Assembly: GCF_006345805.1 (NCBI RefSeq)
Contig: NC_042998.1
Span: 32,860,001 to 32,924,000, forward strand
Source of the DNA: Octopus sinensis
Taxonomy: Eukaryota
Length of the DNA: 64,000 nucleotides
Direction: 5' to 3'
In this document: in pieces, positions 3,408 to 57,843 of the stretch
Position numbering within the stretch: position 1 is the stretch's first letter
Layout: every line of letters starts with the position of its first letter
Notes under the pieces: model-generated
What the model was told of the DNA's origin: nothing
The model's database searches: none
What the model saw: the letters and a program-made list of their open reading frames with translations, nothing else
Translations under genes and position numbers: made by a program

Positions 3408-3520
3408 AGAAGAAGAAGAAGAAGAAGAAGAAAAGAAGAAGAAGAAGAAGAAGAAAAGAAGAAGAAGAAGAAGAAGAAGAAGAAGAAGAAGAAGAAGAAG
3501 AAGAAGAAGAAGAAGAAGAA
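3408..3520. repeat. (GAA)n microsatellite
   Basis: Direct reading. It explains the poly-E/K/R ORFs at 3320-3544. Confidence 0.95.
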
Positions 3521-3885
3521 GCAGCTCTAACCATCTATTACTAGCTACAAGAAATCTTCATAATCATTCACCTCTTATATTTAAAGAATAAACGGTGTCA
3601 TGTTTCAGATGCATTGGTCTCAAATTTTGGTATAAGTCCAGGAATTTCGAGGGTGGGTTGGGGTGGGAAGTCAGTTAGATCGCGCCCAGAGCTCAACATC
3701 GAAAGGATGAAATGCAAAGTTGACGTTGGTGGAATTTGAAACCAGAGCATAAATATGGACGAGATGCTGCTAAGCTCATCGTCTTATACGTTTCAGACAT
3801 GTTAAATCATATCTGTTGCACTGAAATTTTATCCAACAATATCAACTTTCACTAAGATTCCCCGTCGTATATATTTATCCAACAA

Positions 3886-4206
3886 AGGATTTACGCTAGC
3901 GTAATGGTAGCATTCTTGACGCGAAAACAAAGAGGTGTGAGGTCGAGTCCCAAGCGTACGTGAAGGCCTACTTTGAGGCGGTCAGCTGGCAGAAACGTTA
4001 GCGCGCCGGGCGAAATGCCTAGCGGTATTTCGTCTGAGGCTACGTTCTGAGTTCAAATTCCGCCGAGGTCGACTTTGCCTTTCAGCCTTTCGGAGTCGAT
4101 AAATAAAGTACCAGTTTCGCACTGGGTCAATGTAATCGACTTAATCCGTTTGTCTGTCCTTGTTTGTCCCCTCTATGTTTAGCCCCTTGTGGGTAGTAAA
4201 GAAATG
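3886..4206 (+). mobile_element. SINE family A copy with an extra upstream tRNA-like segment, within one 16-bp TSD
   Basis: TSD tatatttatccaacaa at 3870-3885 and 4207-4222. The SINE-A body starts at about 3976. The upstream segment has A-box-like TAGCGTAATGG and B-box-like GGTCGAGTCC. Confidence 0.8.
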
Positions 4207-5039
4207 TATATTTATCCAACAATATAACTGTCAAGGGAAGAAGAAAAATGGGCTTCTAAGAATGTCACCTAAAACATGTTTCACAAAATGCAGAGCGCCA
4301 AGTGGTTTTTCATGAAAGCTTTCGGAATAAATTTTGTTCTGTGATAAAGAAGACAAGACAAATTATCTCATCGACTTTTGTATGTCAGATATCTTTGTAC
4401 TAATACTTAAAGTTATGGCTCATCACTGTTCTATGAAATATTCATAAACTGCCCGGTTGGAGATAAATCGAAGGTTGGCGATATGCTAACAGCTGCGAGC
4501 CTGTGTTGTGTTATATACTACAACGACATTCGTGTATTAGTTGTTGGAAAGAAGCCAAAGTGCTATAAAGCGAAGCATGGAAGCATGGATTGCTCGAAAG
4601 TTATCTGACGGTTTGAAAAATATTGACGTTTATTATAACCAACAGCAGAAATGGAATCGCAACAACAAGAAGTAAATGAATGTATCTAAGCATAAAGAAA
4701 AGGCAGAAGAACTTGAAATAACAAACAACACTAAAGTTGAACACAGAAAGAATGAATCTACGTCATACGTTTTGGGAAAAGAATCTGATGAGTGCAACAA
4801 CAACGACACAAAAATACAAATAAATATATCTTTTCTTTTTCGGATTCCTTTTCATGTAAAGAAAATGATGAATATGAAGTGCAAATAGATGTTTAATTCA
4901 AAAGGAGAAACACGACTAAGAAATACAAAAGCAGGAGATGGCAGGATTTACAACGCAAAAGCTATAGAAAACGGCATTGTTCCTTCATATATGTTCTAAG
5001 AACGAGGAAGAGATAGCGAATACAGAAAGATACAAATGA

Positions 5040-5425
5040 TCTTTTATCTCTGGGGCTGGGGCTATACTGGGGCGCCGCCTTAAAGGGTTCAGTCGAACAG
5101 CTTGATCCCTGTACTTCTTTTTAAACATGATGGTTTTTCTATCAGCCAAGTTTTACTGAACATTAAGTTACACCAGTTGCCAAGCAGTCCTTGGGGCCAA
5201 ACACAAACACAAACACACACACACACACACACACACATATGCATGCACACACAGACACACATACATACACATGTACAAGCTTCTTTCACTTTTTGACCAC
5301 CAAATCCACTCACACGCCTTTGGTAAACCGGGGATGTAGTAAAAGTCACTCTCTCTAGATGCCATGCAGTAGAACTGAACCGGAAACCCTATGTACAGAA
5401 ACCAAACTCTTTACCACACAGCCAT
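5040..5425 (-). mobile_element. SINE family B (tRNA head, CORE-like domain), diverged
   Basis: The reverse complement matches 34845-35270 (ggctgtgtggtaa...gagtggatttggt...). Confidence 0.75.
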
Positions 5426-10664: not shown

Positions 10665-10710
10665 AACACAACGTTTCGGCTGTTATACCCTCCAGCCTTC
10701 ATCAGGTGTC
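10665..10710 (-). ncRNA. Minimal type I hammerhead motif
   Basis: Reverse complement: gacac CUGAUGA a ggcug-loop-cagcc GAAA c GUU guguu, with palindromic AACGUU stem III. Confidence 0.75.
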
Positions 10711-11052: not shown

Positions 11053-11096
11053 ACACCTGATGAAGGCTGGAGGGTATATCAGCCGAAACGTTGTGT
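11053..11096 (+). ncRNA. Minimal type I hammerhead motif (inverted copy)
   Basis: acac CTGATGA a ggctg gagggtatat cagcc GAAA c GTT gtgt. Confidence 0.75.
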
Positions 11097-18661: not shown

Positions 18662-18959
18662 TTGTTTTTGGATTTGGTTTGTAAGATTCTTTATGTGAGT
18701 TCGTGTGTTGAAGCATATTCTGTTGTGTCTAGGGAGAGTCAATTTTTCTTTGTGCCTTATAATTTAACACACTCACCGGTAAAATTTCCCCTTATTCCTT
18801 ACTTTTATATTCTTAAAATTTTTGTTGCGTCTTGCAAACCTTTCAAAAGTCAAGACTATTGAAAAGGTTGCAAGACGCAACGAAAATTTTAGGAAAATAA
18901 AAATAAGGAATAAGTGGAAATTTTACCGGTGAGTGTGTTAAATTATAAGACACAAGAAG
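18662..18959. mobile_element. Fold-back insertion (~100-bp arms plus one-sided extension) with a 12-bp TSD, PLE-type geometry
   Basis: TSD taaatgtacatt at 18650-18661 and 18960-18971. Arms at about 18746-18846 and 18859-18958. Confidence 0.75.
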
Positions 18960-21488: not shown

Positions 21489-21714
21489 ATTTAGCCCCAG
21501 GAGACATCGTCTCCAGCTGGCTATACAACATGATCTGTGTCCTTATATTTTCGAGCAAGGGAATCTAGCACCCCTACTCAGCTCAAACCCAGAAATTGCG
21601 ATACACGGATATTGTTTTGAGCTGAGTGGGGGTGCTAGATTCCCTTGCTCGAAAATATAAGGACACAGATCGTGTCATATAGCCAGCTAGAGGCGATGTC
21701 TCCTGGGGCTAAAT
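21489..21714. mobile_element. Fold-back PLE-like end ('tagccccaggag' family) next to (TA)n
   Basis: Inverted arms of about 98 bp. Shares tagccccaggag..catc.tctcc.gctggctat with 43466-43810. Confidence 0.75.
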
Positions 21715-24579: not shown

Positions 24580-24623
<44 letters not shown>

Positions 24624-24710
24624 TATTAGAGACAAAACCACTATTTTGCAAAACAAACAAGGAAAGACTTAATCAATACATAAAATTTTAATAAATAGTA
24701 AAAAAAACCG

Positions 24711-24753
24711 CCACTACAATTGTTTCTTGTCTTGATCGACAATCTTCAGGTGG
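24711..24753 (-). ncRNA. Type I hammerhead motif, canonical
   Basis: Reverse complement: ccac CUGAAGA uuguc gaucaa gacaa GAAA caauug UA gugg. All three stems are intact and stem III is the palindrome ACAAUUGU. Confidence 0.88.
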
Positions 24754-27700
24754 ACTTCCAATCTAAAATATCAATATTTTAAAATATAAAAATAATAATT
24801 TTAAAATAATTAAAGTATGAATGAAAAAATATAAATATATAATCCATATATAACCTATATATAATCCATATATAATCAATATATAAACAATATATAAACT
24901 AAAATAAACCTATCAACAATTAAATATAAAATATAAAATATAAAATATAAAATATAAAACAAAACAAAAAAATAATAATAATATAATAATAAACTATATA
25001 TACACCCATACACATATACCTAATTATATATAACCATATCTAACTACATACACTAAATCACACCCCTATATATATATCCCTATACATACACATAAAAACG
25101 TCTAGGCAACTATAAATAAATAAAATAGCTAAATACTTCAACACAATACTTATTCATACTCCCACACACACACACATACAACCTACATTCACGCTCTAGA
25201 AAACGGACATCACTTAAAATTATGAACGGAGAAATGGAATAAATGGAATTAAAAATTATATTCACTTGGTAAAACGAACACTACTTAAAAATTATGAATG
25301 AAACAATGCGATAAAACAACAGACATCGCAAATAGACACAAATTACTACGAATTCCTTAACAAACCTACCATGATAAACCAAAACTCATAAAAACATATA
25401 ATGATAAAATCTCCCTTTACTAAACTCTATAACATACCTATATAGCAATCCCCCTAACCTAAACATTCACACACAAATACACACACGTAAACCACACACC
25501 CACGACATATACAAATACCCACACCACTTACACATACCAATACATACATATAAACCTCAACATATACTCCAAAAACCCACTCAACCCCACACAGACAAAT
25601 AAACACAAAAATTATGAATGGATTCTTTTATAAAACTACCATGATAAGCTAAAACTCACAAAACATAAATGATAAAACCTCCCTTTACTAAACACTATAA
25701 CATACTTATATAGCAATCCCTTTAACCTATACATTCACACACAAATACACACACGTAAACACAAACCCATAACAAATACAAACACCCACCCCACTCACAC
25801 ACACCCACAAGTACATATAAGCCTCAACATATACACCAAACAAAATTACTTTACCAAGGAACTTAACATATGTATAAAAAGTATAACCGCTCTGGAAACG
25901 AACATCTTTTAAAATAATGAATGGAGAAATGGAATAAATGGAATTAAAAATAATATTCACGTGGCAAAACGAACACCACTCAAAAATTATGAATGAAACA
26001 ATGTAATAAAACAACCAACATCGAAAATAGACAAATTACCACGAATTCCCTAAAAAAACCATGATAAACCAAAACTCTTAAAACATATAACGATAAAATC
26101 TCCCTTTGCTAAACTCTATAACAAACCTATATAGCAATCCCCCTAACCTAAACATTCACACACAAAAAACACACACGTAAACCACAGACCCACGACTTAT
26201 ACACAACCTATACTAACTTATAAACCTCAATATACACCAAAAACCCACTCCCTCCCCACACAGAGACCAATTAACACATACATCCCAAAACCAAATAACA
26301 AACCCATATACACATTCACACACAAACACACACACCGAAAAACACACACACACAACAGATACATATACTCCCTCACATATACGCATATACATACTCACTA
26401 AACTCGATATATACAACAATATTTACACACCCACACTCATACAGATAAATAAATTATACAACTAAAAACTCACACACAATCTCATATACATAAACACTCC
26501 AATAAAAAACAACATAAATACATCGTAATTAACCAGAATATCAAAAATAACAATATGACATAAGGAGAAATAAAATACATACTTACAAGTCAGTTTCAAA
26601 TTATGAAGTGAAATTAAATTCTTAGCCGTTAAAAAAACCAAACCAAAATTACGTTACCATAGAAATATAACTTATGTAATAAAAAAAAGAAGAATACGCG
26701 CCATGGAAAGTAAACGTCATATAAAATTATGAATGGAGAAATAGAATAAATGGAACTAAAAACTATATCCACGTGGCAAACCAACACTACTTAAACAAAA
26801 TTTATTATGAATGGATTCTTTAATAAAACTACCATAATAAATTATTATATACATTATGAGCTTTAGCTCATCTTAGCAGCTCTAAAAAACAACTTGCAGT
26901 AACCCAAATCTATTCTCGATACCTGCCTTACTACTACACTATTCCATTCCCAATTCCAAGCAACGCTAGCCTCCACCCGGTTACAATTCCCAACTCCACC
27001 CATTCATTCACATTTCAACGACGTTCAACTCCACAGCGCTACATATAAGCCTCAACATATACACCGGAGATTCGCTTTCAATCCGTGCGGATGGGTGAGA
27101 GTATACATTGAGTGTAGTGATGGGGCTCCCATTACTATACACATTTGTACCTGTGTGGTAGTCTCCATGTGTATATTCACGCACGGGTATAAATGCAGGG
27201 GGGGTACACGCGCACGGCATGTACGTGTACCCCCTCACATGTACATATGCATGCTAGTTGGGCTCGATATGTGCAACAATGTAATCGCGCCGCATACATG
27301 CATATGGGCGAGTTGCACAATCAAAATACGCACACGTGTGTGTGTGCGTTCCCTGGTTGTGCAATTCACCCATCTGGGTGTGAGTGGGTGTAAGCGTATT
27401 GCTGTGGATGTCGAGCTTGATACGTATGTATATGAGTGTGTATTGGTGGGTTGTACGTATTTATTGTGTGCATGTGCTTCACGCACGTGCGTCCATGTAT
27501 GGATGAATATATTGGGATTGCTATGTGGGTGTAAATTGGGTATAAGGGGGAGTTTTGTCATTGTATGGGTGTAGGTTTCATTTGTGATGGTGGTTTGTTG
27601 GTGATTTTTAATATGTTCTGTATATTGGGTTAGTTATGTATTATTCTAGTGTGTATAATTGTATACATATGATTGGTGTGAGTGGGATTACGCCCATTTT

Positions 27701-28239
27701 TGGGGATGTATGTGGTTTATTTGTCCGTATAGGCGGGAGTGGCCGTTTGGTGTATATATTGAGGCTCACATGCAATTCCAGGTACGCGCGAATGAAGTGG
27801 GCACTTATATTTGTTATGGGTGTGTATACTTTATTATACAGACAATACCCAAATAAAATCTGTCAATTCAACATACCAAATAAAAAACAAAAAACAAGGG
27901 ATCGTAAACATTCACACATACATACAAAACTCAATAAAAACACCACTAAATAACACCCATCAACATATAAATATATCCTCCAAAATACATATAACAAATG
28001 CATAATAAAAATACATAATAAAATAAAAATAAAAATAAAAAAATATTAAATAAAGAAAATAAAAAAATCTAATATAAATTTTTAAAGTTTTAACATACCA
28101 TAAACTGTTATATTAATATACATTAAAAATGAACTAATTAAAACAAAGAATATCAATAAAGACTAACTATAATTAAAGCCTAGACTACATAACCAAAAAA
28201 TATATTATCTAAACTAATTTAAACTAAACTAAAGTAACC

Positions 28240-29163
28240 TAATAGGGAACTATTATTGCTATTTATCATGAAACTTATTATATAGGTAAAGTAACTTATG
28301 TCTGCATTTTATTTTGCGCTCTTCACCAGTATTAAGTAAATTATCATACTTATAAATAAAATTTCTTTAAACTCATTAGAGCATAAATAACAACAATTAG
28401 CTCCTATAGTATATGATTTAGTTTTACAATTATTTCCCAAATTAAACTATAATTAATATTTAGTGATTTAAGACTCCAAATGTACTTACTAAGTCCGTTG
28501 AGTTGATTCATTTTTATTTTTAAAAGAATTCATGTTGTTGTGCGATTCTTAGTTTTATTTTTGAGGAAGTAGAACCTATATAAACCGCTTTTGGGTAATT
28601 ATTATTCTTAAAGTTATTATCATGTAATGTAACTATACATTTATACACTACATCGTTAATATCACAATTATTATTTAATATACAATTAGATTTATCTCTA
28701 CATGTACAATTAATATAAGTCTTATCATTATTAATATTATTATCAAATAATTTCTTTTTATAAAAATTATTCAGTTTATATTTATTAAATGAAGAAATAA
28801 TGTTACCAAATTATTAGTGGTAGAATAACCAACTCCAAAATTATTAAAATAGAAAATGTTTCTATATTTACGATTATCTCTAATAAATAGTTCTATAACA
28901 TCTAAAATCTCTTTAATAATATTCGTTTTTACTAGATCTCCATAAGGAACTATTAACCATATTTTATTCTTATAACCTTATTATTATTATCATTATTATA
29001 AATATATTTATAATTCTTTATTTTATTAAAATTATTATCAAAATATATCTATGTACAGCATTTAAGGAATTATTAATATTATTAATTTTATCAATATAAT
29101 TATTAATAATAATTAAATTTATTTTTATTTTTATTATTCTTATTTATATTATTATTATTATAA

Positions 29164-29195
<32 letters not shown>

Positions 29196-29505
29196 TATTT
29201 TTATCATTTTTATTATTTTTTTTATAATATCTATTATTTTTACCACTAAACCTAACAAATTATAATTATTATTAGAAGTATCTCGAAAAATATCAATTAA
29301 ATCTTTATCACTAATATTATAAAATTTAATATTCCTATTATAACCTGTCCCTCTAAGGGCCTCATTATAATAATTAGCATGTTTATTAAAAATCTCTATA
29401 TCATAAGAGAGTAATGAAATACGTTTACTTATATTATTAATCAACGATTTTTTAATAGAAAATGGGTGATTACTATTAACATTTATATATCTAAGGTTCT
29501 CTTCG
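28240..29505 (-). pseudogene. PLE ORF remnant: RT C-terminus, Asn-rich linker, CxCx5C, GIY-YIG endonuclease
   Basis: Hand translation NDKTYINCTCRDKSNCILNNNCDINDVVYKCIVTLH...KAVYIGSTSSKIKLRI, with stops and frameshifts. Confidence 0.85.
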
Positions 29506-30689
29506 CTTTGTATGTTTTCTCTCCCTCTCTTCAGCAACTCTTTATTCCTGATACATTTACAGTATTATCCTTTTGTATAAAATAATTTATTTTTGTTCTC
29601 TGAGATGAAGCGTGAGTTTATAAATGTCACATCACAATTCGTCATGCGGTATGTGACATAATTTATAAGTTTGCTTTTCAGTTTATGATTACCATTACAA
29701 ATCCTAGGAAATCGAAAGAATTATCGATGAGAGGATATTAAATTGCGGATGTTTCAATGGGTTGTCGGGTGCTGCAGCGATTTGGCTGAATGCGCTCCTC
29801 CACATTAAATGATGAACATTGATTTCTAATATTTGCACCAGGGGTTTCACATATACGTACACTGAAATGATGGCCTATCAGAATACATCAAGTGCATAAC
29901 TGGTGCAGATTCTTCTTATTCATTTCAGCAAATAATGTCAATTTGAACTCAGACTGTAGAAAACGCAGTACGTGATACTTCATGTCATTCTCTCCCTCCC
30001 TCCCTCCCCCCCTCTCTCTCTCTGTATATGTATGTATGTATATTCTGCATGTATGTATATATCTGTGTATATTCAACTGATGAAGCAAAGCATTTCTAAA
30101 TGCAAAGCCACAAATCCGGGATCTGGAATTATCAAGTACATTTTTACTAGTTTTATCTTACCATTTTGTCTTCTCTCCGTGTTGCTATATGAACACTTAA
30201 GGTGGTTTTAGAGTCAGATCATGGCTGCTATTTTCAGCATGGCAGTATCTCGTAGATACCCTAAGTTATAAGTTAATACACAAGTGTTGACTATTCCGTG
30301 GTAATTACACTACTGAGCGTAATAAATGGGCGAGGGTAAAAAGTGATTTTACCCTTTATTTATACGGCAAGGAGAAAATGGAGGGGATCCAGAGATAGTA
30401 TGCATGAACTGTTAGACATTATATTATGTCTATTTATATGCCCTAATTGTATCTACCGATCCCTACAGTACACTGAAAAGATGGAAATAACATGTGGCAT
30501 ACAGTGACCTCTTGGCAGAAACAGCTGTAAGAAACTGTTCTTCTTTCTCTACTCTAGAAATTACTGGTACTTATATATGTAAAACACAATCTTCACACAT
30601 GTATATATATTCTCATAATTGTTTAAAATAAATAAATAGACATAATATAATGTATAACAGTTGATGCATACTACCTCTGCATCCACTTC

Positions 30690-43465: not shown

Positions 43466-43810
43466 GTATATTTGACACTTAAATGTGGCTAACCACTAAG
43501 GGTGGGTGCTACTGTAGCTTGTAGCCCCAGGAGAACATCTTCTCCGGCTGGCTATTGACACACTTTCTGTGCCCTATCAGTATTTGCAAAGGGAAGCCAT
43601 CATTCCCATCGTCGACCTGACGTGATACGCACGGACCCGAGTTTCTGAGTATTTACCCGTCGTCAGCGCACGATTGCTTCCCTTTGCAAATGCTGATAGG
43701 ACACAGAAAGTGTGTCAATAGCCAGCTGGAGAAGATGTTCTCCTGGAGCAACAAGCTACAGTAGCATCCACCCTTAGTGGTTAGCCACATTCAAGTGGCA
43801 AATATACTTC
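43466..43810. mobile_element. Fold-back PLE-like end (~130-bp arms) with an HHR in the loop
   Basis: Arms at about 43466-43597 and 43676-43810. Confidence 0.82.
43628..43672 (-). ncRNA. Type I hammerhead motif, slightly degenerate
   Basis: Reverse complement: cgugcg CUGACGA cgggua aa uacuca GAAA cucggg UC cgugcg. Confidence 0.7.
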
Positions 43811-53665: not shown

Positions 53666-53700
53666 ATTTAACGTTTCGAGCCAAGCTCTTCTTCAGAAAT
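53666..53700 (-). ncRNA. Minimal type I hammerhead motif (35 nt)
   Basis: Reverse complement: auuu CUGAAGA a gagc uug gcuc GAAA c GUU aaau. Confidence 0.78.

Positions 53701-57171: not shown

Positions 57172-57843
<672 letters not shown>

Follow-up and report, generated by a model that had tools for sequence, protein, structure and literature searches.

Dense one-way A-to-G (A>G) changes, confined to fold-back arms, biased in their 5′ neighbour and nested among genomic copies, were found in the 3′ untranslated region (UTR) of a Penelope-like retroelement of Octopus sinensis. The element lies in a stretch of 64,000 nucleotides, referred to as the window. Very probably, these changes record repeated ADAR hyper-editing of the double-stranded RNA (dsRNA) of the element, with inosine reverse-transcribed as G and fixed in germline DNA by retrotransposition; from the genomic copies we infer which enzyme acted, in what direction the series ran, that RNA was the stage edited and that retrotransposition carried the changes into the germline.

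The retroelement and its 3′ UTR

The search for copies of the element gave 1274 first-look candidates, of which 40 were scored. The insertion in the window has the following parts:

24583 to 24617, no strand: (TA)n tract, the target, at the 3′ end of the insertion (family homology stops at 24583-24618)
24618 to 29501, minus strand: 5′-truncated Penelope-like retroelement of a young and high-copy family; its 3′ UTR measures 3.6 kb (96.8-98.0% identity to 6/6 longer copies)
24722 to 24749, minus strand: candidate hammerhead core (CUGANGA...GAAAC) near the 3′ end (motif match)
28259 to 29501, minus strand: 3′ part of the ORF, with the end of the reverse transcriptase (RT), a Cys linker and a GIY-YIG-type endonuclease, frameshifted in the window copy (motifs by eye)

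Homology with the window copy ended at 29501 in five of the six longer copies compared, and divergence from the family majority was 0.2-2.7% (76 segments). YRDD and VYK...YIG motifs, read by eye in the translations of copies L033 and L031, place the RT before a GIY-YIG-type endonuclease. The Pfam and NCBIfam profile libraries gave nothing over the cut-off for the element ORF, and the Rfam search gave no hammerhead match, with three weak non-specific hits only. Identity as a Penelope-like element, proposed from the sequence alone, was upheld by the RT and GIY-YIG-type motifs, the 3′ hammerhead core and the tandem and inverted 5′-truncated partners. Further matches to the hammerhead core were observed at 10673-10705, 11057-11089, 43641-43666, 53673-53696 and 57237-57269, with a chance expectation of 0.48.

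The best reading, from motifs recognised by eye, would be a Hydra-type (Hydra-clade) Penelope-like element with a C-terminal endonuclease. DKT, a CxCX5C linker, CxxC and CxH motifs, the lack of CCHH and the (TA)n target were all found by eye. In common with the Hydra clade as described by Craig et al. (PMC8557442) are the order of RT and GIY-YIG-type endonuclease, DKT, CxCX5C, CxxC, CxH, the hammerhead, the (TA)n target and inverted 5′-truncated partners. The element differs in having KWK at the place matching the RWK of the clade, and in being longer than 3 kb, with a 3.6-kb tandem and fold-back 3′ UTR, whereas members of the clade are generally <3 kb (PMC8557442).

Several other features of the family and of the window were observed. 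The RT-endonuclease linker (L031 5141-6106, window 29100-29250) carries a long Asn/Lys/Ile/Tyr low-complexity tract, whose reading frame is preserved in L031 and L034. Subfamilies L167, L172, L173, L176, L179, L183, L184 and L186 have additional tandemly duplicated segments of the 3′ UTR, and 3′ UTR length differs by >2 kb between close relatives. On the strand opposite to that of the retroelement, positions 1-4800 of L031 (G000:C5:103285500 onward) hold reading frames 198-264 aa long, which we take to resemble Polinton- or adintovirus-type genes. Long near-perfect inverted repeats, MITE-like and with arms of 99 and 102 nt, lie at 21489-21714 and 18750-18955 of the window.

Polarity of the changes in the fold-back arms

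The units, hairpins and inverted block of the 3′ UTR were mapped as follows, where H1 and H2 are paired tracts, L168 is a sister subfamily, and the rounds are the putative editing episodes:

25250 to 25391, minus strand: H2-homologous forward unit, with 6/34 A changed to G on the sense strand (outgroup comparison)
25765 to 25823, minus strand: left (forward) arm of the reported pair; 6/12 A changed to G, round 2 (against L168)
25967 to 26081, minus strand: H2-homologous forward unit, with 8/25 A changed to G on the sense strand (outgroup comparison)
26841 to 27827, plus strand: 990-bp block whose orientation is the reverse of the ancestral one; its plus strand corresponds to L168 3865-4858 (colinearity with L168)
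26845 to 27039, minus strand: H2 arm, paired only since the inversion; sense A>G 47/104, mirror change 0/50, round 2 (against L168)
27040 to 27335, plus strand: first arm of the H1 hairpin; round 1, when plus was sense (outgroups and L168)
27336 to 27760, plus strand: second arm of the H1 hairpin; round 1 (outgroups and L168)
27763 to 27821, minus strand: right arm of the reported pair, in inverted orientation; 11/27 A changed to G on the sense strand, round 2 (against L168)

The sequence-only reading had paired 25765-25823 with the reverse-complemented 27763-27821 in an ungapped 59-nt alignment containing 18 mismatches, and this alignment was reproduced exactly. The mismatches comprised 9 A/G, 7 C/T, 1 C/G and 1 G/T, and shifting the alignment by 1-3 nt raised them to 38-47. 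The left-arm allele of the window was present in 29/29 copies at 17 of the 18 sites and in 28/29 at the remaining one, and the right-arm allele in 15/15 copies at 17 of the 18 and in 14/15 at the remaining one, so that the arm pair is a trait of the family and not of the window copy. Editing private to the window copy was rejected, given these near-fixed sites and the strand symmetry of the private changes of 54 copies.

The composition of the left arm was A26 C25 T6 G2, i.e., 51/59 A+C, so that one polarity was nearly forced and the 59-nt statistic is weak alone; composition by itself gave 16/16 transitions of one polarity with P=0.065-0.097, and the polarity was rejected as evidence on its own. 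Plain GT/AT microsatellite tracts of sister families likewise self-pair with G.U only. The ADAR interpretation that had been attached to the polarity is nonetheless supported by the relatives, although its own statistic was insufficient. Against L168, 6/12 A had changed to G in the left arm (counted from the alignment), and the right arm showed 11/27 plus-strand T>C (sense A>G) with the mirror change at 0/13; by outgroup comparison, A>G in the left arm was 4/10 inside the arm vs 1/33 outside. The claim that all 16 G.U transitions were A>G on the two arms held for 14 of them against L168, the other two (27796 and 27807) being later sense C>T changes at which the early copy L220 keeps the old base. 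Sense C>T, named beforehand as an alternative, therefore covers 2/16 sites, and as a main cause it was rejected by the outgroups. The C/G mismatch (25808/27778) represents two A>G changes opposite one another. An ancestral G at 25794 and 25791, indicated by distant outgroups, was dropped; the closer L168 has A at both.

An assembly or sequencing artefact is scarcely credible. Fold-backs and low-complexity repeats are error-prone and the support comes from contigs rather than raw reads, but the states are common to dozens of loci on many contigs, and contigs from 4/4 public runs (four study codes) span all 30 bins of 26860-27830. Plus-strand A>G places numbered 18 in run X15 and 7-9 in the other three runs; these are contigs whose RNA nature is guessed, their counts would be usable only with matched DNA, and no hyper-edited RNA read was seen among them.

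Polarity was next assigned against the sister family L132, of which the RT is 95% identical and which carries the same GU-rich units, with the inverted block absent in 30/30 loci. Each piece of the window, written in GU orientation, was compared with 28-30 L132-family loci; ancestral calls required 80% agreement and 10 votes, and columns near gaps and homopolymers were masked. In the first H1 arm (27100-27340), T>C was 46/98 and A>G 1/43, that is, plus-strand A>G 46/98 with the mirror change at 1/43. In its partner (27500-27646), A>G was 18/36 and T>C 0/62, again plus-strand A>G and belonging to round 1. T>C reached 29/70 vs 0/38 in H2 (26845-27005); the right arm of the reported pair had 10/25 vs 0/10, and the forward control pieces 13/707. 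In window coordinates, plus-strand A>G occupied 27040-27760, covering both H1 arms and ceasing at either end, and sense A>G occupied 26860-27040 and 27760-27820.

The forward partner arms showed A>G at 18/69 vs 16/288 elsewhere (P=3.5e-6; the partner tracts were defined after homology was seen), and the unpaired proximal UTR of the window showed 0/137. An A>G excess limited to the fold-back, as the earlier reading had anticipated, was accordingly found, with both reported arms changed; the ancestor was AT-rich, and the bias was absent from the unpaired parts. In L132, short imperfect inverted repeats with G-rich arms were seen by eye at sense 3500-3700 and 4110-4290; they are possibly an older edited hairpin.

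These counts bear on an explanation without any burst, in which ordinary mutation was joined by selection for G.U-tolerant pairing, or by compositional drift of the inverted A/C-rich strand including sense C>T. Composition does explain the 59-nt statistic, and a real sense C>T drift exists and covers the two sites mentioned above. However, T>C climbed from 1.8% to 44% with transversions remaining at 3-5%, and background C>T/G>A rates were two- to threefold above those of A>G/T>C. Within H1, changes at A/T sites were polarised 46 vs 7 and those at ancestral G sites 5 vs 5 (P=0.016); G sites were thus unpolarised, although G.U tolerance should polarise them equally. Early copies, moreover, differ from the unedited form almost solely by A>G-type change. 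The explanation is largely refuted, and we consider it highly improbable.

The inverted block and the graded series of copies

A one-way-cluster scan of 216 loci flagged four, L168 among them; the other clusters, per 150 bases, were L022:4276-4425 (8 T>C), L069:4951-5100 (8 A>G) and L078:151-300 (9 A>G). L168 holds H1 in the sense orientation of the element, with the block flanks unedited, and its H1 was predicted to fold into a single long sense hairpin (z=-23). Since 26841-27827 (plus strand) of the window is colinear with L168 3865-4858, the block was inverted; its start, previously placed at about 27090, was corrected to 26841 by this colinearity. L168 and the window have round-1 changes in common, with G in place of ancestral A at 58 sites of one H1 arm and at 35 of its partner. 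The flanks edited in the window and not in L168 showed T>C at 47/104, 18/84 and 11/27, with mirror changes at 0 in each; the 18/84 are round-2 changes additional to round 1 at 27336-27520 of the second H1 arm.

A segment of opposite polarity had been said to need several rounds or an inversion after editing, and this was borne out, as L168-type relatives show an older H1 and then the inversion. As read from these relatives, the segment would be an older hairpin edited while still sense, with 47-50% A>G in the cleanest tracts. Because H1 stands in sense orientation in L168, its changes require neither an edited antisense transcript nor U>C made by the RT on the present sense strand. The order suggested by the relatives is that H1 was likely edited before, and the new arms after, the flip of this 1-kb piece. 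Among the loci examined, no unedited H1 hairpin and no unedited inverted copy was identified.

For the series as a whole, 41 rows, a few of them partners within one insertion, were projected on the L168 block. In the pre-inversion full copies L217-L219, T>C in the H2 arm was 0 of 103-104 (three further pre-inversion rows do not span this arm). In 34/34 rows scored as inverted, it was 32-56 of 97-104, with A>G at 0-1 of 49-52. L237 is edited and was scored as not inverted, its marker matching in both orientations. Compared with the pre-inversion block, nine early inverted copies showed 39-83 T>C among 50-107 differences, and A>G at 0-1. The block is joined after L168 3253 in 8/9 early copies, and forward sequence resumes at 5033-5044 in eight.

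Some patterns of the early copies nest and grow toward the modern subfamilies; that of L227 lies inside that of L228, with 0 private, 38 shared and 26 added sites. Others are partly independent, with 14-34 private sites relative to L220 and to each other, as in L223 vs L224 (21 and 22 private, 46 shared); the sites shared between such "independent" patterns could reflect common ancestry or site preference. A second inverted piece in L224 (3713-3992, element-sense numbering) carried 38/121 A>G and zero other changes. In the forward partner tracts of the early copies, with related copies pooled, 100-base bins reached, e.g., 52/210 and 42/212 A>G, as against 11/1833 in their ORF and proximal UTR.

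Sense C>T after the inversion numbered 4-14 in the early copies, 42 in the window and 60-64 in L135 and L167, and erodes the round-1 edits. The sense strand is C-poor, with 4-7% C outside the inverted block (element-wide, e.g., window 24620-29600), and master lineages keep acquiring sense C>T though private changes are nearly symmetric. This ongoing gain points to a second strand-specific process. Private changes in 54 young copies, from which three inverted partners and one duplicate had been removed beforehand, comprised sense A>G 55 vs T>C 68 (P=0.65), i.e., no excess; together with the four flagged loci of 216, this indicates that the youngest subfamily is seldom edited anew, or that such events were missed by best-hit sampling.

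The copies suggest a succession of states. The starting point would be a family of L132 type, whose GU-rich units are all forward. Hairpin H1 would then have been gained and about half of its A's changed on the sense strand (L168 type), after which the 990-bp block with H1 would have been inverted, so that the G.U pairs of H1 became antisense and the block flanks became complementary to downstream units. In several copies, both arms of the new duplexes would then have acquired sense A>G, in patterns that differ between copies and with more changes in later subfamilies. Finally, one edited lineage would have amplified widely, while sense C>T eroded the old edits. In each cycle, long dsRNA would be edited to the ceiling, RT would copy inosine as G, and insertion in cells reaching the germline would be followed by amplification; the cycle would repeat whenever a rearrangement creates a new duplex.

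Putative deaminase signature, known systems and meaning

In the main tracts, 41-50% of A were changed, with few other changes, and in each round the changes were A>G on whichever strand was then sense, with the mirror change at 0-1. In the pooled outgroup set, the fraction of sites changed was 42/67 (63%) with A as the 5′ neighbour, 50/98 (51%) with U, 14/60 (23%) with C and 5/21 (24%) with G, and A/U differed from C/G with P=1.5e-6. The 5′ G depletion that the sequence-only reading had expected of ADAR was seen when round 2 was taken by itself (0/11), and was not significant on its own in the pooled outgroup set (P=0.064; P=0.12). No significant 3′ preference was found (14/30 changed with a 3′ G, P=0.23, with few G sites). 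Clusters of APOBEC-type sense G>A were not encountered, the dominant change being sense A>G.

The eta-type error-prone polymerases also give a 5′ A/U bias (WA-type signature). Error-prone DNA synthesis, by the RT of the element or by an A/U-5′-biased translesion polymerase, might thus yield A>G bursts on a structured template with no deaminase; the observed bias fits, and every retrotransposition goes through RT. We nevertheless regard this as improbable, as 40-50% of A were changed in paired arms while the ORF and proximal UTR of those copies show 11/1833, both partners changed on the same strand, the tracts moved when the inversion made new duplexes, and the second inverted piece of L224 has 38 A>G and nothing else.

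The signature agrees with ADAR hyper-editing of dsRNA. The reported 5′ order of ADAR1 is U=A>C>G, and the density lies within its editing ceiling of 50-60% of A (PMC3113232); invertebrates differ in their 3′ neighbour preference (PMC5625713). In the genome, 17 places match the PF02137 adenosine-deaminase domain, for each of which ADAR1, ADAR2, ADAD or ADAT is possible. A deaminase might instead have acted on DNA, in a sense-strand DNA hairpin or a DNA:RNA hybrid during insertion. ADARs can deaminate dA at mismatches in model DNA:RNA hybrids (PMC12925331), and genomic sequence cannot separate RNA from same-strand DNA. Deamination of first-strand cDNA, however, would read as sense T>C, opposite to both rounds, and the level and neighbour order match dsRNA editing (PMC3113232), so that this alternative appears very improbable.

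ADAR-type A>G hypermutation is known from retroviral proviruses, in the U3 of Rous-associated virus and an inverted repeat of avian leukosis virus (PMC12925331) and in the 3′ LTR of BLV (PMC8025556). These resemble the present element in A>G clusters in an inverted repeat, in the change of nearly 50% of adenosines and in a DNA record made via reverse transcription. Those, however, are rare somatic or cell-culture cases, whereas here the marks are host-chromosomal and common to whole subfamilies, in a non-viral retrotransposon with two or more rounds separated by an inversion. In vertebrate LTR retrotransposons, "DNA editing" by APOBEC likewise leaves clustered, strand-biased deaminase scars fixed in genomic copies, but as sense G>A via cDNA deamination in LTR elements, and was reported absent from 19 invertebrates (PMC4866542, PMC2873906); the present element is Penelope-like and belongs to an invertebrate, and its sense A>G changes are restricted to duplexes. 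The transcripts of metazoan repeats also form dsRNA that ADAR hyper-edits, with similar target type, level and 5′ G depletion (PMC5625713, PMC3113232); that editing is described at the RNA level (PMC5625713), whereas here it stands in DNA. A literature search, with subscription papers mostly outside its reach, turned up no report of germline retrotransposon families in which ADAR edits are fixed. What the locus adds is the ordered two-round series with an orientation switch; the chemistry itself is known from proviruses.

A-to-I editing is usually viewed as a transient RNA change, and here it appears as inherited DNA across a transposon lineage, with intermediate states surviving within one genome. 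The inversion serves as a natural experiment, in which the edited strand and tracts switch as dsRNA editing predicts. A wider proposal can be advanced tentatively, at somewhat less than even confidence: ADAR may be a recurrent, structure-targeted germline mutagen in this active retrotransposon lineage. Each new fold-back of the 3′ UTR would be hyper-edited, copied into DNA and then amplified, and the large modern subfamilies may have been founded solely by copies with editing-weakened duplexes, so that editing would steer the heritable evolution of the element. If hyper-editing is indeed the source of these changes, A/G differences that exist between the genomic copies of a repeat can be mistaken for editing, or mask it, in RNA-seq studies. 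It would also follow that retroelement RNA is a target of ADAR in cells contributing to the germline, that Penelope-type RT reads through long inosine-rich hairpins, and that the family holds a fossil record of ADAR specificity.
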